A stretch of 64,000 bases of DNA from a virus (Duplodnaviria; Heunggongvirae; Uroviricota; Caudoviricetes): IMG/VR virus record IMGVR_UViG_3300028895_001083. The stretch is one strand, 5' to 3'. Shown here piece after piece: positions 2,612-52,131 of the stretch. The position numbers and the translations under genes are program-made. The notes beneath the pieces are model-generated. The model saw nothing but the letters and a program-made list of their open reading frames with translations, was not told the DNA's origin and did no database searches. The stretch's first letter is position 1, and each line of letters begins with the position of its first letter.

Positions 2612-2866
2612 ATGGATTTCGAGGAAGCTCTGCGCCAGTGGTGCGCACGCAACCTGCAGGTCACGCTGAGCCACTTCGATCGTGACAACGGCTTGCTTGA
2701 CTTGGTTCTCGACCTTTACGTGAATGGCGTCGTCGTTTCGACGGCGACCACGATGGTCGATCTTAACGAGCTGCTCCGGAAACCCGAACCGGAGCCGGAT
2801 CCGCCGTCCGACGAGCGGAATCCACGAGGCGTGCGGCTCGATCGCACGGAAAGCCCTGTGGTGTAA
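2612..2866 (+). CDS. Hypothetical protein
   Basis: ATG with a GGAGAC SD. Preceded by palindrome site 1 (2584-2599). The 3' end overlaps the predicted tRNA-Gln by 15 nt. Confidence 0.5.
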   Translation: MDFEEALRQWCARNLQVTLSHFDRDNGLLDLVLDLYVNGVVVSTATTMVDLNELLRKPEPEPDPPSDERNPRGVRLDRTESPVV

Positions 2867-2924
2867 TCGGTAACACACGGGATTTTGGTTCCCGTATTGC
2901 TAGGTTCGAGTCCTGCCGGGGCTT
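2852..2924 (+). tRNA. tRNA-Gln (anticodon TTG)
   Basis: Acceptor AGCCCTG/CGGGGCT, D-stem GTGT/ACAC, anticodon stem CGGGA/TCCCG with loop TTTTGGT, T-loop TTCGAGT. Confidence 0.7.
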
Positions 2925-2926
2925 CT

Positions 2927-5944: not shown

Positions 5945-6454
5945 ATGAACAGACGAGACATGCTGAAGACATCGGCCGCTGCCGTTGCGGCCACCGGGAT
6001 GCTCCCGCGCGCGGAAGCCAAACCCACACCGACGGGCGACAAACAGATCATCGAACATTACGCCGCGACGATCTATGCGATCCCAGTCGTGGCCGCCCGG
6101 CGTGTTCTGGGCCTCTACCGCGGTGACTACAGCCTGTCCGTGTTGAAGGACGGCCAGCTGCTCGGCAATGCCAGGATAGTCGTTGCAACCGAAGAGGACA
6201 TCGACCGGTTCTTCAAGCCCGTGGCCGTCGGAGACGGTTTTACTCCGCGGATGGTAGCGAAGATACCGTCGGTGCGCTTCGGTGACGATCTCACTCTTAG
6301 AGACTTCTGGGTCTATACCGATCCGCCGGAGCCGGCCGACGGCTTCGTGAACCGTGAGGGTGCTGGCAAACTGATCGGCCTGCCGTACGCAACCTACGGC
6401 GGACGCCTCTGGAGAATGAAAGGACGTAAGCTCTATGAAATTCGGGACTCTTAG
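5945..6454 (+). CDS. Tat-signal secreted protein
   Basis: N-terminus MNRRDMLKTSAAAVAATGMLPRAEA is a twin-arginine signal peptide with an AxA cleavage site. GGGAGGG SD. Confidence 0.65.
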   Translation: MNRRDMLKTSAAAVAATGMLPRAEAKPTPTGDKQIIEHYAATIYAIPVVAARRVLGLYRGDYSLSVLKDGQLLGNARIVVATEEDIDRFFKPVAVGDGFTPRMVAKIPSVRFGDDLTLRDFWVYTDPPEPADGFVNREGAGKLIGLPYATYGGRLWRMKGRKLYEIRDS

Positions 6455-7325
6455 CGTCGTTTGCGGCACGTCCGCATGCAACGCCGGCTGCCCGTTCTGC
6501 GTGAGCAAGATGACCACGCAGGCAGAAACCGTAAAGAGGCCAAACTGGAGGCGATGTGAGGTCGCCTGCGAATTGGCAAAGCGCAGCGGCGTGACCACTG
6601 CGCTGATTACCGGTAAAGGCGAGCCCACACTCGTCCCCAAAGAGATTTCCGCCTACGTCCGCCGCCTCGCCGTGCACTTCCCGTTGATCGAACTGCAGAC
6701 CAACGGGATTATGCTGGCACACGAGAAGGACGACAGATGGATAAACGAGTGGGCGTGCTCCGGCATGACGCTCATCTGTGTCTCGGTGGTACATCACGAG
6801 AAACTGATCAACAGCGACATGATGGGCTACAAAGGCAAGGAGTTCGAGCTGTCGACGCTGATCGAGCGCATCCACAAAGCCGGTATGTCCGTGCGGATCA
6901 ACTGCACGGCCATGAAAGGCGGCGTTGAGACGTCCGACCACATCCACGACATGATCGACTTCTGCGCCTGCTTCGATGTCGAGCAGTTCACTATCCGCGA
7001 GGTCACTGCGCCGGACGCTGACGAACGCGTCGCACATCCCGGCGTCGCCAAATGGGTCCACGAGCATCAGCTCAACCAAAAGGACAGTGACGGCGCTAAG
7101 ATCGCCGGCGATCTGGCCATCCAGCGCGCAGTCGAGGAGCTGGGTGGGCAGAAACTGCTGGCACTTCCACATGGCGCAATGGTCTACGATGTCGGAGGCC
7201 AGAACGTCTGCACGAACAATTGCTTGACGGATACGCTCAATCCAGAAGAGATCCGCCAGCTCATTTACTTCCGGGACGGCCATTTGAGGTACGACTGGAA
7301 GTATCCCGGTGCTATCATCATCTAG
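6435..7325 (+). CDS. Radical SAM enzyme (family not resolved; QueE-like or activase-like)
   Basis: CNAGCPFC is a CX3CX2C 4Fe-4S/SAM motif at the N-terminus. A glycine-rich ITGKGEPTL SAM-binding motif follows. Confidence 0.8.
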   Translation: MKFGTLSVVCGTSACNAGCPFCVSKMTTQAETVKRPNWRRCEVACELAKRSGVTTALITGKGEPTLVPKEISAYVRRLAVHFPLIELQTNGIMLAHEKDDRWINEWACSGMTLICVSVVHHEKLINSDMMGYKGKEFELSTLIERIHKAGMSVRINCTAMKGGVETSDHIHDMIDFCACFDVEQFTIREVTAPDADERVAHPGVAKWVHEHQLNQKDSDGAKIAGDLAIQRAVEELGGQKLLALPHGAMVYDVGGQNVCTNNCLTDTLNPEEIRQLIYFRDGHLRYDWKYPGAIII

Positions 7326-8908: not shown

Positions 8909-9262
8909 ATGTCCGAAGAACTCGATACCAGTACCGACATCTCGCCGTCCGACGACGGATCGGAACTGAACGTACACATCGACCTCACGCCGAAAAACGA
9001 CAAGTCGGAGACGTTGGTGTGCAACTGGTGTGCTGAGCCGCACGCCGTCGACGCTGATTACAAGGAAGCGATGCTCGAACGTGGCGAAGAGCAGCTTATG
9101 GTGCTCCGCCAGCAGTATCCCGACAAAGCCGAGGTGCACGAGCTCGAGCCCGACCAGACATGGACATGCGGCAGGTGCTTGCTATTCCTGTGCGGGCATT
9201 CGCCCGATTCCATGCGAACCGACTGCCACGATCACGCAGTCCCAGAAGAGAGACAAACGTGA
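8909..9262 (+). CDS. Acidic Cys-containing hypothetical protein
   Basis: Perfect AAAGGAGG SD. CNWC...CGRC...C..H spacing suggests a zinc ribbon. Confidence 0.6.
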   Translation: MSEELDTSTDISPSDDGSELNVHIDLTPKNDKSETLVCNWCAEPHAVDADYKEAMLERGEEQLMVLRQQYPDKAEVHELEPDQTWTCGRCLLFLCGHSPDSMRTDCHDHAVPEERQT

Positions 9263-12565: not shown

Positions 12566-12982
12566 GGATAGAACTCCGTTTGAGGTAGAGAGGTATCGTC
12601 AGCGCGAGCTTGCAAAGTTCGATGCTGCTGGTCACTTCTGTGGCGAGGTCGCTCGACGAACCCGCCCGTTCTGGGTCACTGTTTTGATCGCTTGGGTGAT
12701 CATAATGGTGGTCTGCTATCTGTGACATGATAGCACAGACATGCTAAAACGCGAAGTCTGATACACTCCAGCCTGGGAGGAGCTGCTAATGGCAGTAACA
12801 ATGAATGCGAGGTTGTTTCTTGAGCGTGCGGGTCTCCGGCCAACATTCAGGCGACCGGTCCCGACCACAGTCCCGGAGGATAATCCCATCTTCTCCCTCC
12901 CGTTGGATCCGCCACTACCACCGGCGGAATTGATACGGGACGGATGGCCTCCGCCGGACAGGTCTTCGACTCAGAATGACCC

Positions 12983-17004: not shown

Positions 17005-17263
17005 GCAGTGCACACACAAGGACTGCCGACAGTGGACCACGGATTGGTACCCGATCACTGGAGGCGCTCGCCTTAAACACGTCCGCTGCGCCGAGTGCTT
17101 TGAGCGCGAGGTGCGTGCCGCTGTCCACGACGGGATCGTCCCGTTCGACAAGCTGCAGGAGCGGGAGAAGAAGGACACGTATAAGGAGCCACAAACTGTA
17201 CCGGATCAAGATTCAGATGCCGGTCCTAGTCCACCAGGAGAAGATCCATGTGGTGGAGACTGA
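16985..17263 (+). CDS. Zinc-finger-like small protein
   Basis: AAGGAGGAG SD. CTHKDC...CAEC four-Cys arrangement. Confidence 0.6.
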   Translation: MSKKELRQCTHKDCRQWTTDWYPITGGARLKHVRCAECFEREVRAAVHDGIVPFDKLQEREKKDTYKEPQTVPDQDSDAGPSPPGEDPCGGD

Positions 17264-17540
17264 ACTCGAGGTCCCCGACCAGTTCCAACTGGTTGCTGGG
17301 CACTACATATATCACAAGGTGACCAGCGGGCTGATGCCCATCGGCACCGTGATCTACGACGGAAAGCGTGACGTCCTGGTAGCGTGCCTGGACGGAGCGG
17401 CTTATGACAAGACCGTTACTATCGACGAATGGCTGGTGGAGCGTCCGCACTGGGTCGAAGCGACCGGCGAGGACGACGCACCGACGCCGTTCCTCGAGAT
17501 GCAACGGATCAAACTCGCGCCGCCGGATGACGGCGACTAA
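17217..17540 (+). CDS. Hypothetical protein
   Basis: ATG at 17217; an alternative GTG at 17250 has an AGGAG SD. Confidence 0.45.
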   Translation: MPVLVHQEKIHVVETELEVPDQFQLVAGHYIYHKVTSGLMPIGTVIYDGKRDVLVACLDGAAYDKTVTIDEWLVERPHWVEATGEDDAPTPFLEMQRIKLAPPDDGD

Positions 17541-17559: not shown

Positions 17560-19683
17560 ATGAACAAGAAAGCGGCTGCCGCCAGAATCGCTGAACTGTC
17601 AGCGGACGTGGATCGGCACAACATGTTGTACTATTGCTATGGTGAACCAGCGATCCCGGATAGGGTGTTCGACGAGCTCCTCAAGGAACTGGTTGCACTA
17701 GAGCAGGAATTCCCGGATCTGGCGCTGCCAGATAGCCCGACCCAACGTGTGGGCGGCGCTCCTGTTGAGGGCCTCGAGTCCATGGAGCACCCGTCGCTCA
17801 TGTTTTCTATCGACAACTGCTTCGACCTCGATGAGGTCAAGAAGTTTCATCAGCGTGTGGTGAAGAAGCTCGGCCACGAGCCGCTCTGGACGCCCGAATG
17901 GAAGATTGACGGTTGCGCTGTCAATCTGATCTATGAGGACGGCGTACTCACCCATGCCATAACCCGCGGCGACGGTGCAGTCGGCGACGACATCACGCAC
18001 GCTGCCAAGGCAATGCGCGGCGTCCCTCTCAAGCTGGACCGTCTCTACGACGAGGAAGGCAATGTGATGGGGAATCCCAAGCCGTTGCCGAAGCTCTTGG
18101 AGATCCGTGGCGAAGCGTTCATCACGCACGATGACTTCACGCAGGTCAACTGTGCGCGCAACAACGCTGGTGAGGAGACGTTCGCCAACTCCCGCAACGC
18201 CACGTCCGGCGCTATCCGTAGCGTCGATCCGGCCGACTGTCACGAGCGGCGTGTACGTTTTATGGCGCACGGCATCGGCAAGTGTGAGTACGAAGGCGAC
18301 GTCGATATCGAGTCGTACTTCGAGACGCTGTTTGCCTTTCATCTTTGCGGGATGCCGATCACAGATCACTATGGCCTGCCCGCCCCGATGGATAAGGCGC
18401 TGAAGACCGTCGCAGAGATGGTTGCCATGCTGCCAGAACTGAGCATTCCGGTCGACGGGATCGTCCTGAAGCTGGACAAGTTCAGCGATCGTGAAGCCAT
18501 GGGCCAAGAGTCCAAGAAGCACGTGAGCTGGGCGCTGGCCTACAAGTGGGAGAAGTACGAGGCCGTAACCGAGGTCGAGCGCTTCGACGTACAGGTAGGC
18601 AAGCAGGGCACGCTGACGCCGGTGGTTTACTGCAAACCGGTGGAGATCGCTGAGACGATGGTCGGCAAGGCGTCGCTGCACAACTGGCACGAAGTCTTGC
18701 GCCTGGGCATCGCCCACGGTGACTCGATCGTCATGGAAAAGGCCGGCAAGATCATTCCGCACGTCGTACGTGTGGTCAAGGAGAAGCGCACCGGACCGGT
18801 CGCGCCGTTCCTGCCGCCCGCTACCTGCCCGTCCTGCGGCAGCGACGCCATCGAGGATGGTCCGTTCCTGCGCTGCTCAGGTGATTCGTGCCCCGCACAG
18901 ATCGCCGCCCTGCTCCGATCGGCCGCTGACCGGTCCCGCCTAGATATAGATGGTTTGGGGGAGACCCTAGCCACCCAATTGGCGGAGGCAGAGCTGGTTG
19001 AGGACCTCTCGGACCTCTTCACGCTTGAGCATCGCAGAGACAGCGTTCTGAGGCTTGCACGCATGGGCGAGAAGAAAGCCGACAAGCTCTTCGAAGCCCT
19101 CGCAACGGCGCGTGAGCGGCCTTCCTGGCGATTATTGGCGTCTTTGAACATCAAGCACGTCGGAAGGACCATGTCGGAGGCCATCTGCAAGGCTGCTAGC
19201 GCTGCTGGCGCCGAGCTGAAGGAACCCGCCGACCCCTTCCAAGTGATGGTGTCCTTGTGGTCGATCGACGACTATACCCAGATTGAGGGGGTTGGCGAAG
19301 CCGCCGCTCGATCGATCTGGACGTGGATGCACAGCGAGAAAAACCTGAAGCTGCTGAAGCGCCTCCGGGACTACGGCGTCAACATGGGCGTCAACGACCC
19401 GGTGCCCGAAGTAGACGACGGATCTCCGAAGCCGCTCGCCGGTATGAAGATCTGTGCGACCGGGAAACTGGTCGGGTACTCTCGCGAAAGCATCAAGGAG
19501 ACGATCGTGCAACACGGCGGTACAGTCGCCAGCGCGGTCTCGGCGAAGACCGACATGCTCGTCGCCGGCGAAAAAGCCGGCAGCAAACTGAAGAAGGCCC
19601 AGGACCTGGGCGTTCGTGTCGTCAACGAAGCGGAGTTCAATGACCTCATATCGGTCGAGCAGCAAGAATCCGCCAGTAAGTAA
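17560..19683 (+). CDS. ligA: NAD-dependent DNA ligase
   Basis: AGGAGG SD. KIDG adenylation lysine motif (EWKIDGCAV), Zn finger CPSCGS...C..C, HhH region and a C-terminal BRCT-like domain. The N-terminus aligns with the LigA Ia domain (YYxxxxPxIxDxEYD). Confidence 0.9.
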   Translation: MNKKAAAARIAELSADVDRHNMLYYCYGEPAIPDRVFDELLKELVALEQEFPDLALPDSPTQRVGGAPVEGLESMEHPSLMFSIDNCFDLDEVKKFHQRVVKKLGHEPLWTPEWKIDGCAVNLIYEDGVLTHAITRGDGAVGDDITHAAKAMRGVPLKLDRLYDEEGNVMGNPKPLPKLLEIRGEAFITHDDFTQVNCARNNAGEETFANSRNATSGAIRSVDPADCHERRVRFMAHGIGKCEYEGDVDIESYFETLFAFHLCGMPITDHYGLPAPMDKALKTVAEMVAMLPELSIPVDGIVLKLDKFSDREAMGQESKKHVSWALAYKWEKYEAVTEVERFDVQVGKQGTLTPVVYCKPVEIAETMVGKASLHNWHEVLRLGIAHGDSIVMEKAGKIIPHVVRVVKEKRTGPVAPFLPPATCPSCGSDAIEDGPFLRCSGDSCPAQIAALLRSAADRSRLDIDGLGETLATQLAEAELVEDLSDLFTLEHRRDSVLRLARMGEKKADKLFEALATARERPSWRLLASLNIKHVGRTMSEAICKAASAAGAELKEPADPFQVMVSLWSIDDYTQIEGVGEAAARSIWTWMHSEKNLKLLKRLRDYGVNMGVNDPVPEVDDGSPKPLAGMKICATGKLVGYSRESIKETIVQHGGTVASAVSAKTDMLVAGEKAGSKLKKAQDLGVRVVNEAEFNDLISVEQQESASK

Positions 19684-19813: not shown

Positions 19814-20314
19814 GTGTACATACAGGGGCCGCGTTACAAAGTCGAGTTTTACGCCTTCGAGACGCTTGGCGGGGTCATCGGCCACACCGGAGCGCTTGCG
19901 AGGGCTGATTTCAGTACAGGAGATACCTTGGGATTCAAGATCAATGTCACCGTCGAGGCGCTGCGGACCAAACTGCAGGCGAACCTGGCGCGGCACAAGG
20001 ACCTTTACCAAGAAGCCAGAGATGGCTACTGCGAGAAGGCGAAGGCGCAGCTGTGTGAAGCTGTTGATCGCCTGAAGGATGGCAAGCTCATCCGACTACG
20101 GTTCGACCTCGAGCCGCCTACCGATCACTCCGAGGACTACGAGCGGGTTTTGCGTATGCTTGACGCCTGCACGGACGAATCGATGGAAATCACAGAAGAA
20201 CAATTCGCCGCGTATTGGGACGACGACTGGTCGTGGATGTACAACTGGGTGTGCACGAACAGCAAGATGTCGTCCAAGACGCTGGCATACGGCCAATCAA
20301 AAGGATTACTGTAA
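19814..20314 (+). CDS. Hypothetical protein
   Basis: Frame has coding-like GC3. There is no in-frame ATG for about 180 codons; GTG at 19814 chosen as start and is uncertain. Confidence 0.45.
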   Translation: MYIQGPRYKVEFYAFETLGGVIGHTGALARADFSTGDTLGFKINVTVEALRTKLQANLARHKDLYQEARDGYCEKAKAQLCEAVDRLKDGKLIRLRFDLEPPTDHSEDYERVLRMLDACTDESMEITEEQFAAYWDDDWSWMYNWVCTNSKMSSKTLAYGQSKGLL

Positions 20315-23792: not shown

Positions 23793-23854
23793 GTGAGTCT
23801 ACCAGATCTGTCGATCGTGTGTCAAGTGTCTTACCTGAAAAAATCTGACAATTT

Positions 23855-23871
23855 TGCTTGCAATGCAAGCA
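23855..23871 (+). promoter_or_regulatory. Inverted repeat TGCTTGCA-a-TGCAAGCA in divergent promoter region
   Basis: Perfect 8-bp arms between the minus-strand block and the plus-strand gene at 23890. An adjacent TGACA is -35-like. Confidence 0.35.
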
Positions 23872-23889: not shown

Positions 23890-24225
23890 ATGCACCATAT
23901 TCCAGTGGATCATTGTCCGGACGTGGAGTTGACGAAACTCCCGAACGAGAAGGTGGTCACATTCGACGGGCATGAGTTGAAGCTGGGGTCAGTCATCTAC
24001 TTTCGCTTCTGTCCGCGCGAGGCGGCGTCCGAATACGTCGTAGTCTCAGATCGCGCGATTCGTGGCAGAGGCACTACAAAAATAATGGTGGTAGGCAGCC
24101 GTGGCATCGCAGCGGCTATGGACGCCACCGAATTCGTTAGAGACAAAAAGATTTGGTGGGACTGGTACCAGCAGAGGTACAAGCCCGCCGGGAGACGAAC
24201 CAATGGCGAAACAGCCAGAGACTGA
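23890..24225 (+). CDS. Hypothetical protein
   Basis: AAGGAGAG SD. Confidence 0.55.
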   Translation: MHHIPVDHCPDVELTKLPNEKVVTFDGHELKLGSVIYFRFCPREAASEYVVVSDRAIRGRGTTKIMVVGSRGIAAAMDATEFVRDKKIWWDWYQQRYKPAGRRTNGETARD

Positions 24226-24838
24226 TCTCGTTCCCACTGACCTCGTCACTGTCACCATGGATATGGACAAGGACGACGTCGCGGCCATTTTGATGTCCCG
24301 CGCTGAAGAGCGCATCAAGCTGGCCATTAAAGCTTGTCAGGACCGTGAAAAGGTTCTGACGAAGGAGCACGACGAGCTGCGCGAAGCCTTCAACGACCTC
24401 TGCGAAGAGTTCGCAAAGGAGAAGATGGAGGACACCGTCGAGACCCTCACCGAAGCGGCCACTGCGCTGAAGTGCAAGAATATCAGCACGGAAGTGTACT
24501 CGGGCGGATTCACGCTCCACAACAACATGGTCGCGGCAAGCATGAGCCTCAACGCCCAAAAGCCGCGTGTGCGCTGGGAGGTGAGTACGTCCTTCAAGGC
24601 CACGGCTGCGCTGAAGAAGGCCTACCAGACCGGCGAGAAGAAGCGCAAGGAGATCGACGACAACAAGAAGCAGTGGATCGAATGGCGGCGCAAGCTGGCC
24701 GATCTGCCGTCGATGGAACGCCGTGCCAAGGCGGCCGTCGCCGAGTCCCGGCTCAAGTCCACGAAAGAGGGCCAAAAGCTGGTCGACATGCTCAACGGCG
24801 ATCTCGACAACTCCGTGAAGCTGCTCGGCATCTGTTGA
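24203..24838 (+). CDS. Hypothetical helical protein
   Basis: GGGAGA SD; overlaps the upstream gene by 23 nt. Confidence 0.5.
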   Translation: MAKQPETDLVPTDLVTVTMDMDKDDVAAILMSRAEERIKLAIKACQDREKVLTKEHDELREAFNDLCEEFAKEKMEDTVETLTEAATALKCKNISTEVYSGGFTLHNNMVAASMSLNAQKPRVRWEVSTSFKATAALKKAYQTGEKKRKEIDDNKKQWIEWRRKLADLPSMERRAKAAVAESRLKSTKEGQKLVDMLNGDLDNSVKLLGIC

Positions 24839-24845
24839 TATTGCA

Positions 24846-25991
24846 ATGCCTGCCAGTGGTGATCTAAAACTGCTTGGATTCTGGCGACAGCCGGACGCCA
24901 CGCGGTGGAAACCATTTTCTGAAGATCAAGAGAGCGTAACGCTCAACGCGCCGATCGATGACGTGGTGTTTGGCGAGACTCGGGAAGATTGTCTTGCCCA
25001 GATTCACGCCAAATACCCGGCATCGGATCCCAATATGTCGCTCGTGGAGTATCGCTGGCAAACGCATCCGCGTCACCAGTCAATCAGCGGCGACCCGTCT
25101 ACGAATTGGGATAAGGACGACTCCATCGACGTGAGCGAGACGGAGCGCTACTGCGGAGCCGATCCGTGGGAAGCTCTTGCGCTTGCTAAGAAACTCGGCA
25201 CGATTGAAACTCGCAATCTGACTACGGAAGGCTACTGCTACGACGGGCCGAAGTGGGAGGAGGAGGGTTGTATTGTGACGAGTGTCGGTTGGTACACCGG
25301 CATTAAGAAGATCAAGTATGATCCCAAAGGCCTGCTACGTGCGAAGAAAGCCGCAGCGACACGCCAAAAGACGGGGGCCGTCCTCGTTAGCGACGTGGCT
25401 TCGGCGATCTGGCAGCTTGCGATGCAACTCAACGATGTTGTACGCATCCGCGGCGTCGGCAGCGATTGGAATAGCCGCTACTCCTGCTGCATCTGCGCAT
25501 TAGAGACGATCAAGTGGTTCAACGCCGTCTTCGGCAAGAACGCACATCGTCGCAACAAGCACTTCCGCGAACTCAAAAAGAAGTGGAAGGAGCGTGCAGA
25601 GGCGTCGCGCAAAGCGTGGTATCGTGACGCGCAGGTCGAATACAATGACAACGATCCGCGGGCCGTCTTCGCCAACTTCATGGCCGAAGAGATCAAGGTC
25701 CGTAACTCGCCCGTACTGACCGAAAAGGAGTGGCGAAAACGCGGCGAACGTTGGAAGCCCCCGCCGGGCACGTTCAAGGCGTTCGGCCACAAAGCCTATG
25801 CCAAACAAAGGGCGCGCGACGAAAAAGCGCAAGCCAAAAAAGAAGCCGAAGCCAAAAAAGCCGCCGCCAAAAAGAAAGCCAAAGTCGGTGGCAAAAAAGG
25901 CAAAGGCAACGCCAAAGCCAAAAGGCCGACCAAAAAGAAAGCCCCCGCAAAGAAGCGGCCGTCCCGACGTAAGTCCAAAGCTGCGCGCTGA
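24846..25991 (+). CDS. Protein with histone H1-like Lys/Ala-rich C-terminal tail
   Basis: The C-terminal ~70 aa are AKKEAEAKKAAAKKKAKVGGKKGKGNAKAKRPTKKKAPAKKRPSRRKSKAAR. Confidence 0.55.
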   Translation: MPASGDLKLLGFWRQPDATRWKPFSEDQESVTLNAPIDDVVFGETREDCLAQIHAKYPASDPNMSLVEYRWQTHPRHQSISGDPSTNWDKDDSIDVSETERYCGADPWEALALAKKLGTIETRNLTTEGYCYDGPKWEEEGCIVTSVGWYTGIKKIKYDPKGLLRAKKAAATRQKTGAVLVSDVASAIWQLAMQLNDVVRIRGVGSDWNSRYSCCICALETIKWFNAVFGKNAHRRNKHFRELKKKWKERAEASRKAWYRDAQVEYNDNDPRAVFANFMAEEIKVRNSPVLTEKEWRKRGERWKPPPGTFKAFGHKAYAKQRARDEKAQAKKEAEAKKAAAKKKAKVGGKKGKGNAKAKRPTKKKAPAKKRPSRRKSKAAR

Positions 25992-26244: not shown

Positions 26245-27094
26245 CTTCTGAAGACCAGGCTGCTCCCAGGTGTGTGCGACACCACCGTCGCAGTGCGTCA
26301 CCGTCACGGCCCTCTGAGAACTTCCGATAGTACGCTATCGGGTCCATAAAGAGCTGACTGACGGGTTTTGCCTCGGCAAATAGTGTCATCATCCTGGACC
26401 AATTGAACGCGAAGGCATGGCGCAGCTGGGTGTCGTTGTAGGACACGCGGCCCGCCTGAATCTCTTGTTGTACATGACAGACAATCGCCAGTGCGTTGAT
26501 TGCTGACTCTGCTGTGAAAAGCAGGTCGCCAGCACCGTCGCCGATGGAACCACCATTCTTCGCCATCCACACGTTATGCGTCGCGCCGTTCAGGTAAGCG
26601 ACCCACTCGTCTAGGATGTAGAGGGGGATCTGATTCCATTGGCGAGTTCTGCCGATCATGTACTGCGCGTACATTCGCGATCTGAGTCCGGTTGGGACAT
26701 ACCGGGCAGCATCCCTGATAGTGCAGGGCCGCGGCTCTTCGATGAGCGCGGTCCTGCCGTTCAAACAATAGAGTGCGTTTTCCACACCCGTGCCGGCACC
26801 ATGCTCGTTCCTCATGAGCGAGTTCACACCATGGGTCGCTTCATGCGCCCACGTGCCCAGATCTGAGTCACGGTAAGTCGCGGAGCTTGTCAGGCCCGTT
26901 GCGGGCAGCCGCGAATCAATGTCCGCCAATACCTGCCCCAACCGTGTGTCGTCTACCGCTCTGACAACCGGCGCGTAGGTCCACAGCGGTTCACGGGCAG
27001 CCTCATTGGAGCGATCGTCGCCGGCAGCGTACATTGGTCCCGCCAGTACGCTGCCGGCTGACGCCGCTATGAATGCCCGTCGTGATAGTTTCAT
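26222..27094 (-). CDS. Tat-signal secreted protein with HExxH (HEATH) zincin-like motif
   Basis: MKLSRRAFIAASAGSVLAG is a twin-arginine signal. WAHEATHGVNSLMRNEH...VEN is compatible with a gluzincin HExxH+E arrangement. Confidence 0.55.
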   Translation of the reverse strand: MKLSRRAFIAASAGSVLAGPMYAAGDDRSNEAAREPLWTYAPVVRAVDDTRLGQVLADIDSRLPATGLTSSATYRDSDLGTWAHEATHGVNSLMRNEHGAGTGVENALYCLNGRTALIEEPRPCTIRDAARYVPTGLRSRMYAQYMIGRTRQWNQIPLYILDEWVAYLNGATHNVWMAKNGGSIGDGAGDLLFTAESAINALAIVCHVQQEIQAGRVSYNDTQLRHAFAFNWSRMMTLFAEAKPVSQLFMDPIAYYRKFSEGRDGDALRRWCRTHLGAAWSSEVMWLVAT

Positions 27095-27144
27095 GGCGTC
27101 AAATATACCGTTCTTTCGGGATCCGGGGAGGACCAATTTTGTTA

Positions 27145-27915
27145 ATGGAAACAAAATGTGCGCATGCGCAGCAGGACTGGGCGACAGCCTTACTGCAGCG
27201 ACACGGCAAACTGATGGAAGTCGAGGAGATGGAGGCCCTCATTAAGAGGGGTAAGGCAGGGGACGACGACGCGCGGAACCGCGGGATTGCTGGTTGCTAC
27301 AGGCTGGCCTTTCAACAGGCCTGGCGCGCAGCGTACAACGATCCCCACTTCTCCGTCGACGATCTCTTCCAGGAGGCCGTGATCGGCCTCATGAAGGCAG
27401 TCGAGCGCTGGCGACCAGAAACGGGCAACCGATTCGTAACCGCTGCTTGGTTCTCGATCCATGCCGCAATCTCATGGTACAAAAAGTGCCATAGGCGCCT
27501 CGTATACTACCCGCCCCGCTGGGACGAAAAGGGTGTCAAGCGGCCGGACTGGACTAAAGACTGTCCGGAGCTGTTTGCAGACTACGTGTCGTTGCATAAA
27601 CGCGTGGGCACGGGCAATAGGCGAAATCCCGGGATATTCGTGTACGAGATGATTGAAGACGAGACGCTGCGCGACTTCGTTGCCGACGTCGAGAGCGAGG
27701 ACCAAGCCGATATGGTCTACGAGGCGTTCGAGAAGTTGACGGAGCGTGAAGTCGACATACTGCGGCGTCGCTATCTCGGCGACAAGCTTTGGGAGATCGG
27801 TAAAGTTTACGGAATCACCCGCGAACGTGTTCGGCAGTTGATCATCAAAGCCGAAAATATCATCCACAATCACGTCTTGAAAGAGCAAATCGATGGAGAC
27901 GCTGGTACTGCTTAA
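27145..27915 (+). CDS. Sigma-70 family sigma factor (phage-encoded)
   Basis: Region 2-like FQEAVIGLMKAVERW...FVTAAWFSIHAAISWY. Region 4 HTH EVDILRRRYLGDKLWEIGKVYGITRERVRQLIIKAE. Confidence 0.75.
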   Translation: METKCAHAQQDWATALLQRHGKLMEVEEMEALIKRGKAGDDDARNRGIAGCYRLAFQQAWRAAYNDPHFSVDDLFQEAVIGLMKAVERWRPETGNRFVTAAWFSIHAAISWYKKCHRRLVYYPPRWDEKGVKRPDWTKDCPELFADYVSLHKRVGTGNRRNPGIFVYEMIEDETLRDFVADVESEDQADMVYEAFEKLTEREVDILRRRYLGDKLWEIGKVYGITRERVRQLIIKAENIIHNHVLKEQIDGDAGTA

Positions 27916-28318
27916 ACCCGATACGCTCAAACGGGGCCTGGTGGGGCGCGTCCTCACCAGGCTCGAGGATCGGGGCATCCGCTTCCTGCGGGTGAAAGAG
28001 TTGATCATGCTCCCCCGCCACTGCGAGGAGTTGTACGCAAAATTCAAGGGCGAGCCCTACCTGCCTCGCATCCAAGAATTTATGACCAGCGGCCCGATCG
28101 AGGCCCGTGTGGCGCACGCGCCGCACGCGCCCGACGACACGATCACGATCGTACGGTCTGCTGTTGGCAGCTTCACGGCACCCGCTGCAGGCACCATCCG
28201 TGGTGACTTCGGCGCTGTCCGCGAAAAGAACCTGATACACGCCAGCGACTCGCCAAGTGCGGCCAAAGTCGAAATCGAGATATTCTTCCCGGGGTTCCCT
28301 GGAGATGTCGGCGACTAG
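27893..28318 (+). CDS. ndk: Nucleoside diphosphate kinase
   Basis: LVLLKPD, RGLVG, EFMTSGPIEARV, GTIRGDFG and NLIHASDS match the NDK signature including the active-site His region. ATGA coupling to the sigma gene. Confidence 0.85.
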   Translation: METLVLLKPDTLKRGLVGRVLTRLEDRGIRFLRVKELIMLPRHCEELYAKFKGEPYLPRIQEFMTSGPIEARVAHAPHAPDDTITIVRSAVGSFTAPAAGTIRGDFGAVREKNLIHASDSPSAAKVEIEIFFPGFPGDVGD

Positions 28319-28685
28319 GGCCTGGCGAATGCTGCGCGACCGCGACGGACTCCCTGCAACGCTGTTCCACGGCGTACGGGGAAGCCGGCTTCTGCACCTC
28401 GACCTTTGGTACAGGGCGGAAGAGAAGATTGCGTGGGACGGTGACAAACGGAAAGCGACGCACTACACGTCGGGATTCCACGTCATGCCCACCTACGAGG
28501 ACATACTGCGCTTCTCGAACCGGTTCCGAAACATCGATGACCTTGTGATCTGCGAGGTTGATGTAAAAGGGAAGCTTCGGAAGAAGAAGCACAGTCCTTC
28601 TAACATACTGCTCGCTCCCTGGATGCGTATCCTGGATGATCAGTGGGCAAACCGATTACTACTACCTGAAGTGAGGGCAAACTGA
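28305..28685 (+). CDS. Hypothetical protein
   Basis: ATG overlaps the ndk end by 14 nt; basic protein. Confidence 0.45.
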   Translation: MSATRAWRMLRDRDGLPATLFHGVRGSRLLHLDLWYRAEEKIAWDGDKRKATHYTSGFHVMPTYEDILRFSNRFRNIDDLVICEVDVKGKLRKKKHSPSNILLAPWMRILDDQWANRLLLPEVRAN

Positions 28686-35164: not shown

Positions 35165-36676
35165 ATGACAAATTCGACGGAAGAGCTGGCCTCTGACGAT
35201 TACGTCGTCGTCATTGGTCCCGTCATTGTCGATCGCTACTTCGTGGGCAAACCCAGACGACTTGACCGTACGGCGCCGGTGCCTCTAATCGGCGTCACGG
35301 GACAGTTCTGGGCGCCCGGTGGCGGCGGCAATGCCGCAAACTGCTTGGCCCATCTGGCCCTCCCAACGACGTTCGTCGGCATGGTCGGAGACGACGACGC
35401 CGGCGAAGAGTATCTCAAGGCACCGATGCCTCCCAACCTGCAGCTGAAGGTTGGCAAATACGCTAACTACAGCACCCCCGTAAAAACCCGCGTCTATGCC
35501 AACAATCGCCTTGTAGCACGGTTTGACGCGGACGATCCTTACACAGGGTCGTTCGAGTCTACGACTGCGTCCTTATTTTTTAGCGCTGTGGCAGAGAAGC
35601 CGCCTTTGGCGATACTTATCAGCGACTACAACAAGGGGGTGTGCACGCCCGACATCATCGGGTCCGTGCTGCTCTACGGCGAGGATCACAACGTCCCCGT
35701 GATCGTGGACCCTGATCCGGCGCACACAGAGAGCTATCAGGGCGCTACGCTACTCACGCCGAACGCCGACGAGGCAATGCGGATGGCAGCGGCCTGCGGG
35801 TATGCAGATCGCGCAACCGATCCGGTCGAAGCAGCTGACTTCCTGGCCAACAAGTTCGATTGTGACGTCCTCGTCACGCTCGGCAGCCACGGAATGGTGC
35901 TGGTTCCGCCCCACGGGCAGGAACGGTTCCCGCTGCAAGCGCTGCCCGCCGCTGCGATCGATACGTGCGGTTGCGGAGATGCTGTGGCGTCGGCGATGAC
36001 CTACGGGATTGCCACCGGAATGAACGCACGCACGGCTACGCGCTTTGCAAACGTGTCCGGTTCGCTATGCTGCGAGATCATTGGTGCTATGCCCATCCCG
36101 CTGCACCGCCTCAACCAACGCGTGACGCTGTCGCTCGGGCTCGATCGAAAGGTCGTGACCCTCGACGAGCTGCGTCTCCTGCGGCAATCCGTCGCCGTCG
36201 CCGGCGAAATCTTCGGGGTTGCCAACGGCGTGTTCGACGGCGTCCACGACGGGCACACCTCGCTGCTACGGCAGGCCAGGGAGCATTGTGACTTCCTGGC
36301 GGTGCTCGTGAACACTGACGAATCGGCGGAGCGCATCAAGCGCCGACCGCAACACAGTCAGATAGCCCGTTCGCTCAGCCTGGCGGCGCATCCGTTGGTG
36401 GATGCGGTGCTGCTGTTCGACGGCGATAACGCAGTACCAGAGTATCAGGCGTTGCAGCCCGATATCATGGTAAAAGGGCCGGACTACAAGGATAGGGAAG
36501 ACCTGCTACCGGAAGCTGCGGTGCTGCCTGAATGGGGCGGCGAGCTGCGGTTGGCCGAGCTAGAGGTCGACGTCAGTAGTACCCAACTGCGGGAAGAAGA
36601 TGAGGCCCTCAAAGAGAGCACTGCGCCAGGAGAGACTGAAGACAGCGCTGGAGGAGCTGGAGACGCTGCGGACTGA
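35165..36676 (+). CDS. Bifunctional sugar kinase / nucleotidyltransferase (HldE/RfaE-like)
   Basis: N-terminal ribokinase/pfkB motifs GGGGNAANCLAHLA and DTCGCGDAVASA. C-terminal cytidylyl/adenylyl-transferase motif GVFDGVHDGH (the (H/T)xGH family). Confidence 0.7.
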   Translation: MTNSTEELASDDYVVVIGPVIVDRYFVGKPRRLDRTAPVPLIGVTGQFWAPGGGGNAANCLAHLALPTTFVGMVGDDDAGEEYLKAPMPPNLQLKVGKYANYSTPVKTRVYANNRLVARFDADDPYTGSFESTTASLFFSAVAEKPPLAILISDYNKGVCTPDIIGSVLLYGEDHNVPVIVDPDPAHTESYQGATLLTPNADEAMRMAAACGYADRATDPVEAADFLANKFDCDVLVTLGSHGMVLVPPHGQERFPLQALPAAAIDTCGCGDAVASAMTYGIATGMNARTATRFANVSGSLCCEIIGAMPIPLHRLNQRVTLSLGLDRKVVTLDELRLLRQSVAVAGEIFGVANGVFDGVHDGHTSLLRQAREHCDFLAVLVNTDESAERIKRRPQHSQIARSLSLAAHPLVDAVLLFDGDNAVPEYQALQPDIMVKGPDYKDREDLLPEAAVLPEWGGELRLAELEVDVSSTQLREEDEALKESTAPGETEDSAGGAGDAAD

Positions 36677-36905: not shown

Positions 36906-37044
36906 GCTCCTCTCGCAGGATTTGTACATCCGGCGGGGCGTCGACACCGAGGCGGATCCGATCACGACCAGTGCGGATGACCGTGACGGTGATGTCGTCG
37001 CCAATCTTGATCTGCTCACCTTCTTTGCGGGACAGGACCAACAT
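36871..37044 (-). CDS. csrA: Carbon storage regulator CsrA/RsmA homolog
   Basis: 57 aa, MLVLSRKEGEQIKIGDDITVTVIRTGRDRIRLGVDAPPDVQILREEL. This nearly co-linear alignment to CsrA ([48 protein letters not shown]) was done by eye. AAGGAGG SD. Confidence 0.8.
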   Translation of the reverse strand: MLVLSRKEGEQIKIGDDITVTVIRTGRDRIRLGVDAPPDVQILREELTSAEAPAESR

Positions 37045-43243: not shown

Positions 43244-43272
43244 TTGACAGGCTCAACAACGGCAGGTAGTAT
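43244..43272 (+). promoter_or_regulatory. Sigma70-like promoter (TTGACA-N17-TAGTAT)
   Basis: Perfect -35 with 17-bp spacer. The -10 keeps the invariant A2/T6. Lies upstream of the AAAGGAAG SD and GTG at 43304. Confidence 0.5.
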
Positions 43273-52102: not shown

Positions 52103-52131
52103 TTGAAATGGCACCGCCCGTGTGGGATAAT
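52103..52131 (+). promoter_or_regulatory. Sigma70-like promoter (TTGAAA-N17-GATAAT)
   Basis: 5/6 matches in both hexamers with 17-bp spacing, upstream of gene 52219. Confidence 0.45.

Follow-up and report, generated by a model that had tools for sequence, protein, structure and literature searches.

A divergent sigma-70-family gene overlapping a nucleoside diphosphate kinase gene in the genome of an uncultivated jumbo phage

The 64,000-nt viral sequence IMGVR_UViG_3300028895_001083 (Caudoviricetes; hereafter the window, meaning the whole stretch of DNA that was analysed) carries a gene predicted to encode a divergent sigma-70-family factor lacking a folded sigma-3 domain, and the 3' end of this gene overlaps the start of a gene that apparently encodes an active nucleoside diphosphate kinase (NDK). 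As a whole, the locus is best explained, with moderate confidence on our part, by insertion of the sigma gene upstream of an older NDK gene; the two genes would then share their expression timing, with no dedicated link between transcription and nucleoside triphosphate (NTP) supply. Judged by sequence, each protein is a new and divergent addition to a known family. An earlier reading of the DNA made from its letters and open reading frames (ORFs), referred to here as the sequence-only reading, had described a sigma70-family protein with regions 2 and 4 followed by an NDK gene, and had taken the overlap between them to tie a transcription switch to the supply of deoxynucleoside and nucleoside triphosphates (dNTPs and NTPs). 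The identification of both genes was borne out by profile and structure databases. The proposed tie was not supported, in view of NDK genes occupying the same slot with no sigma, of the ribosome-binding site that NDK has of its own, of the frequency of overlaps in this genome (28 of 63 neighbour pairs) and of a lack of co-occurrence at other viral loci.

An uncultivated jumbo phage with a genome of no less than 220 kb is the source of the window, since an identical sigma protein was found on ∼24-30 metagenome contigs of up to 220 kb, every one with the same locus (1 SNP in 1401 nt, otherwise identical). Both ORFs were called identically on independent metagenome contigs, and neither gene departs from the rest of the genome in base composition. 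When 24 kb of the window were compared by megablast with 50,697 phage records (INPHARED), no match was obtained. The locus lies inside a block of DNA-replication and nucleotide-metabolism genes: the window encodes the terminase large subunit (TerL), an NAD-dependent ligase, an exonuclease, SbcC, SbcD, two helicases (DnaB is among the window genes) and a primase, together with a family-A-like DNA polymerase, a UvsX-like recombinase and an NT5C-like nucleotidase. There is a single sigma-family ORF in the 64 kb, and no RNA polymerase gene.

Identification of the two proteins

The 256-aa product of the upstream gene matched Pfam Sigma70_r4 (E 3.9e-10, 39.5 bits against a cut-off of 24.1) and Sigma70_r2 (E 1.5e-7, 31.5 bits against 24), as well as PHROG 351, ‘RNA polymerase sigma factor’ (E 6.9e-34). 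It reached 71 bits with NCBIfam TIGR02937 (cut-off 42.9) and fell far under every equivalog and subfamily cut-off. The start picked by the gene callers, ATG 27145, follows a Shine-Dalgarno sequence (Table 1), and strong AGGAG-type Shine-Dalgarno sequences are used throughout the window. An in-frame TTG at 27139, two codons upstream of this ATG and 6 nt after the GGAGGA, is a possible alternative start. A longer, 280-aa ORF beginning at 27073 was rejected, as it would overlap the start of the divergently transcribed gene and the gene callers choose 27145.

In the AlphaFold model, sigma-2 (residues ∼20-117) and sigma-4 (∼180-255) are each predicted with pLDDT >90, and are separated by an unstructured linker of ∼57 aa (residues 120-176, pLDDT <50) at the place where sigma-3 would be. 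The protein had no match to Pfam Sigma70_r3 that would indicate a folded sigma-3 domain, and in the alignment it has ∼24 aa where relatives have ∼55, so that region 3 is mostly lost. The best PDB matches of the model in Foldseek were sigma32, sigmaS and SigA; in BFVD, which holds predicted viral protein structures, they were sigmas of Synechococcus, Bacillus, Vibrio and Aeromonas phages. The protein looks like a group 1-3 sigma that has lost sigma-3, rather than a member of the extracytoplasmic function (ECF) group.

Within region 2.2, DLFQEAVIGLMKAVERW lines up with the consensus DLIQEGNIGLMKAVEKF and retains the invariant D73, G81, L82 and A85. Region 4.2 likewise keeps its invariant residues (R226, E227, R228, V229, R230 and Q231), with a helix-turn-helix that reads ITRERVRQ. 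Aromatic and polar residues in region 2.3/2.4 of known sigmas melt and read the -10 element. Here the consensus FSTYAxWWIRQAI has become FVTAAWFSIHAAI, and in the window segment (FVTAAWFSIHAAIS) the positions of Y430, W434, R436 and Q437 are altered, with one W and one F retained; the numbering of Y430, W433, W434, R436, Q437 and T440 is that of E. coli sigma-70. The sigmas of two sister phages described below, L126 and L202, retain Y, W, R and Q in this region (FQTYAGWASRQYM).

The closest database relatives of the window sigma are cellular short RpoD-like proteins, at ∼32% identity. Identity to the sigmas of cultured phages was 24-30% (tblastn). Viral contigs often carry sigma factors, and at least 160 viral relatives were present in IMG/VR. 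An exhaustive HMMER search over 1.84 billion representative proteins returned, beyond the protein itself, nothing better than E 6.8e-19.

The downstream ORF (141 aa) scored 109 bits with Pfam NDK (E 2e-31, cut-off 27) over positions 2-131 of the 135 in the profile. A total of 111 NDK sequences in the PDB matched it at E <=1e-10, the best being 3vvt (E 1.5e-25). The consensus residue stands in all 26 invariant columns of a 26-sequence alignment (A1), among them those of K8, Y48, R88, R103, N113, H116 and E127; the nearly invariant S118 is also present, and the catalytic His116 lies in the motif NLIHASDS. In the classical numbering these residues are K12, Y52, R88, R105, N115, H118, S120 and E129. 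The score against the Ndk equivalog model NF001908 of NCBIfam (109.3 bits against a cut-off of 155) marks the protein as a divergent member of the family, with a 4-residue insertion (APHAPDD) and a Kpn-loop region 2 residues shorter. Its best cellular matches are mostly from Planctomycetota (43-47% identity), and a Planctomycetes genome bin was obtained from one source sample (PMC7449369); these two observations give a weak hint that the host belongs to the Planctomycetota.

NDK is rare in phages. Matches by tblastn were found in 20 of the 50,697 INPHARED records, most of them resembling host contamination, and several of the NDK matches among IMG/VR viral contigs are giant-virus or huge-phage contigs. 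The enzyme goes unmentioned in a survey of 224 jumbo-phage genomes (PMC7824862), and a literature search found no paper connecting NDK with jumbo or huge phages.

Distribution of sigma and NDK among related phages

When sigma or NDK was used as a single-protein query, the viral contigs of IMG/VR yielded no relatives; these were reached through alignments and through synteny, with the exonuclease gene next to the locus as the anchor that recovered the syntenic phages. The sigmas of L126 (identical with L201) and L202 were not flagged as close by the word-indexed and exhaustive searches because they are only 24-32% identical to the window protein; both match Pfam r2 and r4.

The window, L126 and L202 have both sigma and NDK at the locus. 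In L203, L123 and L124 (identical with L012) the slot holds NDK and lacks sigma. Of seven syntenic lineages, five carry NDK here. Neither gene is present in L121/L204, nor in L122/L205, which keep a homologue of the gene downstream of NDK in the window (28329-28685). The two sigma-carrying relatives are the nearest to the window by every shared protein: exonuclease identity is 63-64%, against 45-57% for the other relatives, and their identity to the window is 77% for TerL, 58-59% for NDK and 63% for the downstream gene. A neighbour-joining tree pairs the NDK of the window with that of L012 as sister taxa. Since NDK occupies its slot without sigma in other lineages, we take it to be probably the older, ancestral resident of the locus. 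Judged from the sigma-less L012 alone, the adjacency would look unique to this phage, a view ruled out by L126 and L202.

Beyond this family the two genes were not found side by side. None of the best 80 of the at least 160 viral sigma loci in IMG/VR had NDK within 5 kb, and none of 29 viral NDK loci had a sigma within 5 kb.

Structure of the sigma/NDK junction

The ATG of NDK lies at 27893 and the sigma stop codon TAA at 27913-27915, which gives an overlap of 23 nt. No ATGA is present at either end of the window NDK; the ATGA overlap that the sequence-only reading had placed in the window is instead the form seen in L126 and L202, where sigma and NDK overlap by 4 nt (...GTA TGA / ATG AGT...). 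The N-terminus of NDK reads M-S-E-T-L in these two phages and M-E-T-L in the window. Without the Ser codon no TGA lies over the ATG, and the window sigma frame therefore extends 21 nt further, to the 23-nt overlap.

The sigma-less L012 and L203 have a strong Shine-Dalgarno sequence before NDK, AGGAGAAC, with a spacer of 8-9 nt. In L126 and L202 the sequence GGAGAAC is found 11 nt upstream of NDK, within the last sigma codons (ACG GAG AAC GTC ATC GTA TGA). The same ribosome-binding element is degraded to AAGAGCAA in the window, which has a weak Shine-Dalgarno-like AAGAG 7 nt before the ATG. Local RNA structure at the junction, which could occlude the NDK start, was not significant (z = -0.83).

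Overlaps are frequent in the window, where 28 of 63 same-strand neighbour pairs overlap (44%), three of them by exactly 23 nt. The translational coupling earlier claimed for this pair may occur, and the stop and start overlap in all three phages; the arrangement is not conserved beyond what genome compaction produces, and such coupling would be nothing special. We infer that sigma and NDK form a lineage-specific, co-transcribed unit.

Rapid divergence of the sigma gene

Sigma is the fastest-evolving gene of the locus, to the point of being hypervariable. Between L126 and L202 the sigma proteins are 62% identical (dN 0.30, dN/dS 0.27), compared with 89% for NDK (dN 0.055, dN/dS 0.10), 96% for the exonuclease (dN 0.022, dN/dS 0.05) and 98% for the gene downstream of NDK (dN 0.018, dN/dS 0.04). 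The sigma dN/dS of 0.27 denotes purifying selection, and the gene is therefore functional. Synonymous divergence was also raised, with a dS of 1.15 for sigma against 0.42-0.55 for the neighbouring genes, which suggests diversifying pressure or allele exchange. The window sigma is 24-32% identical to those of L126 and L202, and the flanking genes 57-64%. The three phage sigmas have the same sigma-3 deletion and carry the motifs [RH]PxW and PEL[FY]; the shared deletion and linker motifs support a common origin.

Promoters and upstream motifs

The two near-consensus promoters named by the sequence-only reading were recovered at exactly the positions it gave, 43244-43272 and 52103-52131 (TTGAAA-17-GATAAT), and each matches the consensus at 10 of 12 positions. 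Host-type promoters, which it took to suggest early transcription by host sigma70, are plausible. The counts of sigma-70-like sites were those of chance (7 against 5.9+-2.8, and 4 against 7.2+-2.7 in shuffled sequence), but the best sites were placed non-randomly. Of the six that match at 10 of 12 positions, three (43244+, 52103+ and 23825-) are non-coding and lie <=200 nt upstream of a same-strand gene, as do 4.2% of strand-positions (P = 0.0013). One of these, the promoter in front of the exonuclease/NT5C operon, has counterparts at the same position in seven relatives (L126, L202, L203, L122, L123, L124 and L121), where the site reads TTGACR-N16-18-TAGAnT; over all eight phages the consensus is TTGAC(A/G/T)-N16-18-(TGG)TAGAcT. 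Because this promoter is present with and without sigma, it is most likely read by the host holoenzyme, and its sequence suggests that this holoenzyme favours a TAGAnT-type -10 element with an upstream TG(G).

A promoter class for the phage sigma was sought in the same material. De novo searches with k-mers, spaced dyads and 9-mers (one mismatch) in 34 regions upstream of window genes found no distinct promoter motif; they yielded just Shine-Dalgarno words (ATAGGAG, CAAAAGGAG) and tRNA-like T-loop words, with dyads inside the shuffle range. Words of the TGGTAGAC type, as -10 candidates, did not recur in the window. Comparison of upstream blocks between sigma-carrying and sigma-less phages gave the exonuclease promoter and a palindrome, and no sigma-specific motif. 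The power of these searches was low, as they covered 64 kb and two 20-kb loci.

RNA structure upstream of sigma in the window was not significant (z = 0.08). In L202 (∼9090-9123, minus strand) and L126 (∼8985-9015, minus strand), a strong 13-bp GC hairpin (z ∼ -3) follows the preceding gene at a distance of 20-35 nt from the start of sigma. The window lacks it and carries the divergent gene for the secreted protein at this place. The hairpin could be a terminator or an attenuator that gates expression of sigma and NDK.

Interpretation of the locus

The explanation favoured here, a sigma gene inserted in front of an older NDK gene, would work as follows. Through its conserved region 2.2 the window sigma would bind the host core RNA polymerase. 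A TTGACA-like -35 element is predicted for its promoters because region 4.2 (ITRERVRQ) is conserved, and a non-canonical -10 element because region 2.3/2.4 is altered. It would thereby divert some of the host's transcription towards a group of phage genes. Within the nucleotide and replication module, NDK would top up (d)NTP pools for the replication and transcription of a very large genome. The simplest account of the phyletic pattern is a single insertion of sigma directly upstream of NDK in the subclade of the window, L126 and L202, with the sigma frame running into the ribosome-binding site and start codon of NDK. The two genes would be co-transcribed, and translation of NDK may be partly coupled to that of sigma. 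What connects them would be a common expression timing in a compact genome; a dedicated link is unsupported because of the phyletic pattern, the ribosome-binding site of NDK itself and the frequent overlaps in the genome.

Several observations weigh against this explanation. Promoter opening by the window sigma is not assured, since the equivalents of Y430, W434 and Q437 are lost. No promoter class for the protein was found in the window or in the cross-phage comparison, and the sigma gene had no promoter of its own at the scan threshold, the sole candidate being a weak extended -10-like TGATAGTTT at 27083-27091. Only seven lineages were available, with no rooted tree, which leaves loss of sigma elsewhere as an alternative to its gain. 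The window sigma is no closer to the L126 and L202 sigmas (24-32%) than to cellular RpoD-like proteins (32-35%); the case for orthology of the phage sigmas is therefore made by their position and common deletion, not by how far apart the sequences are. Lastly, the stop/start overlap was retained in three lineages as sigma diverged to 24-32% identity, and the junction itself could be under selection.

This last observation would be accounted for if the overlapping stop and start tied NDK output to that of sigma, so that (d)NTP supply is matched to a burst of transcription and replication. The weak Shine-Dalgarno sequence of the window NDK (AAGAG), which may make NDK dependent on ribosomes arriving from sigma, would fit as well, and the rarity of NDK in phages could lend meaning to its retention beside sigma. 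We nevertheless consider such a coupling unlikely: the same slot carries NDK with a strong Shine-Dalgarno sequence and no sigma in three lineages, L126 and L202 still carry the NDK Shine-Dalgarno sequence, 44% of same-strand pairs overlap anyway, no co-occurrence was seen at 80 and 29 other viral loci, and the RNA structure of the junction was not significant. The similarity values raise another issue, namely whether the sigmas are orthologous at all. Independent acquisitions, or xenologous replacement at a recombination-prone slot, would make the adjacency an insertion hot spot; the window sigma resembles cellular RpoD-like proteins (32%, and 35% to P0002) at least as closely as its phage counterparts, whose flanking genes are much more similar to those of the window (57-64%), the dS of sigma is about twice that of its neighbours, suggesting allele exchange, and the slot is variable, with 24203-24838, 24846-25991, the metalloprotease-like gene and a 140-aa zinc-ribbon-like ORF coming and going. 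We hold this to be quite unlikely, given that the three sigmas share an architecture, the boundaries of the sigma-3 deletion and linker motifs that are absent from cellular relatives, and that all three have the same position, orientation and joining to the NDK start.

The changes in region 2.3/2.4 also admit a protein that is no promoter-specific factor. With region 2.2 retained, the equivalents of Y430, W434, R436 and Q437 lost, the sigma-3 domain absent and no distinct motif in the 34 upstream regions, the sigma-like protein might occupy the host core polymerase as a decoy, contributing to host shut-off or re-partitioning of polymerase, with its pairing to NDK incidental. Against this stand the DNA-contact residues of region 4.2, which are fully conserved and would be needless in a pure decoy, the Y, W, R and Q kept by the sister proteins of L126 and L202, and a dN/dS of 0.27 that indicates purifying selection along the protein. 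Two-domain ECF sigmas, moreover, function without sigma-3, and the motif search was underpowered; a decoy is, in our judgement, improbable. We are similarly doubtful of a more far-reaching proposal, that sigma and NDK constitute a selected ‘takeover cassette’ of one jumbo-phage clade in which a hypervariable sigma lacking sigma-3 is co-translated with NDK. If it were true, redirection of the polymerase and regeneration of (d)NTPs would switch on together, sigma would be in an arms race with host factors or co-diversifying with its own set of promoters, and NDK might restore pools drained by nucleotide-depleting host defences; the fast-evolving sigma beside a conserved stop/start would be the signature of that conflict.

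Neighbouring genes and other features of the window

Downstream of NDK lies the gene of a conserved 118-aa protein (Table 1). A homologue follows NDK in L126, L202, L123 and L124/L012, as in the window, and is present without NDK in L122; identity of the orthologues is 63% in L126 and L202 and 32-39% in L123, L124 and L122. Only three clusters of this protein were found among 5.8e9 proteins, with the invariant motifs TLFHG, SG.HV and HSP. The third homologue (L211, 4668-5048) is encoded on a phage-like contig near genes for a dCTP deaminase/dUTPase, a Macro protein, an IMPDH-like protein and a thymidine kinase, and because it sits among such genes a role of the 118-aa protein in nucleotide metabolism is suggested. 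Its AlphaFold model was unusable (pLDDT 46.7).

On the other side of sigma, the divergent gene encodes a 290-aa protein that looks, from its signal peptide and HExxH motif, like a secreted metalloprotease; no family match was found in Pfam, PHROG or NCBIfam. Its orthologue in L203 (3321-4160, 56% identity) is back-to-back with NDK, with no sigma between them.

Table 1. Positions of the features discussed, in window coordinates unless a relative is named
Feature	Position	Strand	Basis
Sigma-70-family factor gene, 256 aa	27145-27915	+	Pfam r2 and r4, PHROG 351
Shine-Dalgarno sequence of the sigma gene, GGAGGA	27127-27132	+	12 nt before ATG 27145; read from sequence
NDK gene, 141 aa	27893-28318	+	Pfam NDK (PF00334)
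Overlap of sigma 3' end and NDK 5' end, 23 nt	27893-27915	+	ORF coordinates, sequence
Sigma gene of sister phages	L126 8177-8950; L202 8292-9074
Conserved small protein gene, 118 aa	28329-28685	+	Orthologues; no Pfam, PHROG or NCBIfam match
Divergent neighbour, 290 aa	26222-27094	-	Translation, gene call; twin-arginine signal peptide MKLSRRAFIAASAG, HExxH motif WAHEATHG
Putative promoter of exonuclease/NT5C operon, TTGACA-18-(TGG)TAGACT	23796-23825	-	Positional conservation
Sigma-70-type promoter-like site, TTGACA-17-TAGTAT	43244-43272	+	Intergenic, ∼30 nt upstream of likely start 43304
Sigma-70-type promoter-like site, TTGAAA-17-(TG)GGATAAT	52103-52131	+	Gap between DNA polymerase gene and gene 52219
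tRNA genes Met, Glu, Gln	680-753, 2072-2145, 2852-2925	+	ARAGORN

Two further upstream elements were conserved. Upstream of TerL (∼12690-12745, minus strand) is a block GTGCTATCATGTCACAGATAGC..CACCA with an extended -10 element (TGCTATCAT), which is common to L121 and, in diverged form, to L126 and L202, i.e. to sigma-carrying and sigma-less phages alike; it is likely the TerL promoter. The first rightward gene (23890-24225) has an inverted repeat, GCTTGCA-A-TGCAAGC (∼23854-23868, plus strand), directly ahead of its Shine-Dalgarno sequence. L126 and L202 keep the repeat as GCTTGCCTTGCAAGC upstream of their orthologue of this gene, a similar word (GCAAGCAC-AAGGAG) is found before a small minus-strand gene starting at 37044, and the repeat could be an operator or a 5'-UTR hairpin.

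Besides the three tRNA genes, GGTTCGA-type T-loop words recur in other intergenic regions where ARAGORN finds no tRNA; they may represent degenerate tRNAs or tRNA-like elements. A gene for an NAD-dependent DNA ligase (17560-19683, plus strand) is present in the window and in L121-L124; L126 and L202, the closest relatives, lack it at the place flanked by their orthologues of 17217-17540 and 19814-20314. At 35165-36676 (plus strand) a 503-aa protein is encoded in which a PfkB sugar kinase is fused to a cytidylyltransferase-like domain (HldE-like); this protein is kept across the whole phage family at 34-44% identity and is an unusual cargo for a replication module. A radical-SAM protein (6435-7325, plus strand) is weakly similar to QueE-like phage proteins and may hint at DNA modification of the 7-deazaguanine type.

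Comparison with known systems

Sigma factors are a classical way for phages without a polymerase to time their gene expression. The window sigma is notable as an orphan that lacks sigma-3 and is yet RpoD-like, and that evolves several times faster than its neighbours; it could serve as a natural case of a sigma that drifts while working, and of co-evolution with promoter specificity. The NDK of this tailed-phage family would mean that the family is not host-reliant for the last step of (d)NTP synthesis. The locus is also a caution that in compact phage genomes a stop/start overlap, even one conserved in close relatives, weakly supports a functional link. Practical impact will be limited until the host or a heterologous assay is at hand.

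Sigma-70-family factors by which phages retarget the host core RNA polymerase are known from Bacillus phage SPO1 (gp28, gp33/34) and, in RpoD-like form, from ‘group 2’ jumbo phages (PMC7824862; PMC13401047). Like these systems, the window has a sigma-70 homologue with regions 2 and 4 and no RNA polymerase gene; its sigma is found among DNA-metabolism genes of the early/middle type, and host-type promoters occur elsewhere in the genome. Unlike them, the window sigma has no close relative, a disordered linker in place of sigma-3 and a changed region 2.3/2.4, and it overlaps an NDK gene, an arrangement not seen at 80 other viral sigma loci.

With the group 4 (ECF) sigmas the window protein shares a composition of sigma-2 and sigma-4 without sigma-3, and it passes TIGR02937, the ‘sigma70-ECF’ superfamily model. 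It differs from them in that its sequence and fold match best to RpoD, RpoS and RpoH, in an N-terminal helix that aligns with region 1.2, and in a linker remnant (‘SL...D’) resembling region 3.2. No Pfam Sigma70_ECF or r4_2 match was obtained for it, the L126 and L202 proteins fell below the cut-offs, and no anti-sigma-like gene, the usual partner of an ECF sigma, adjoins it, the neighbours being the secreted HExxH protein and NDK. The lack of a folded sigma-3 separates it in turn from sigmas of groups 1-3 (RpoD, RpoS, RpoH and FliA types).

The window NDK resembles cellular Ndk and mimivirus NDK, structures of which are among its PDB matches, in its ferredoxin-like domain, catalytic His, nucleotide-binding residues and length of ∼140 aa. 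It is set apart from cellular Ndk by an identity of 43-47% at best, a score below the equivalog cut-off, the insertion and the shorter Kpn-loop, and from both cellular and giant-virus enzymes by its origin in a tailed-phage-like genome, where NDK is rare. In dNTP supply of the T4 type, phage enzymes work with the Ndk of the host, which T4 borrows. The scanned part of the window showed no thymidylate synthase, ribonucleotide reductase or dNMP kinase. As in T4, a large phage of lytic type here has nucleotide metabolism beside its replication genes (NT5C-like nucleotidase, NDK, exonuclease and ligase); unlike T4, this phage family encodes an NDK of its own.

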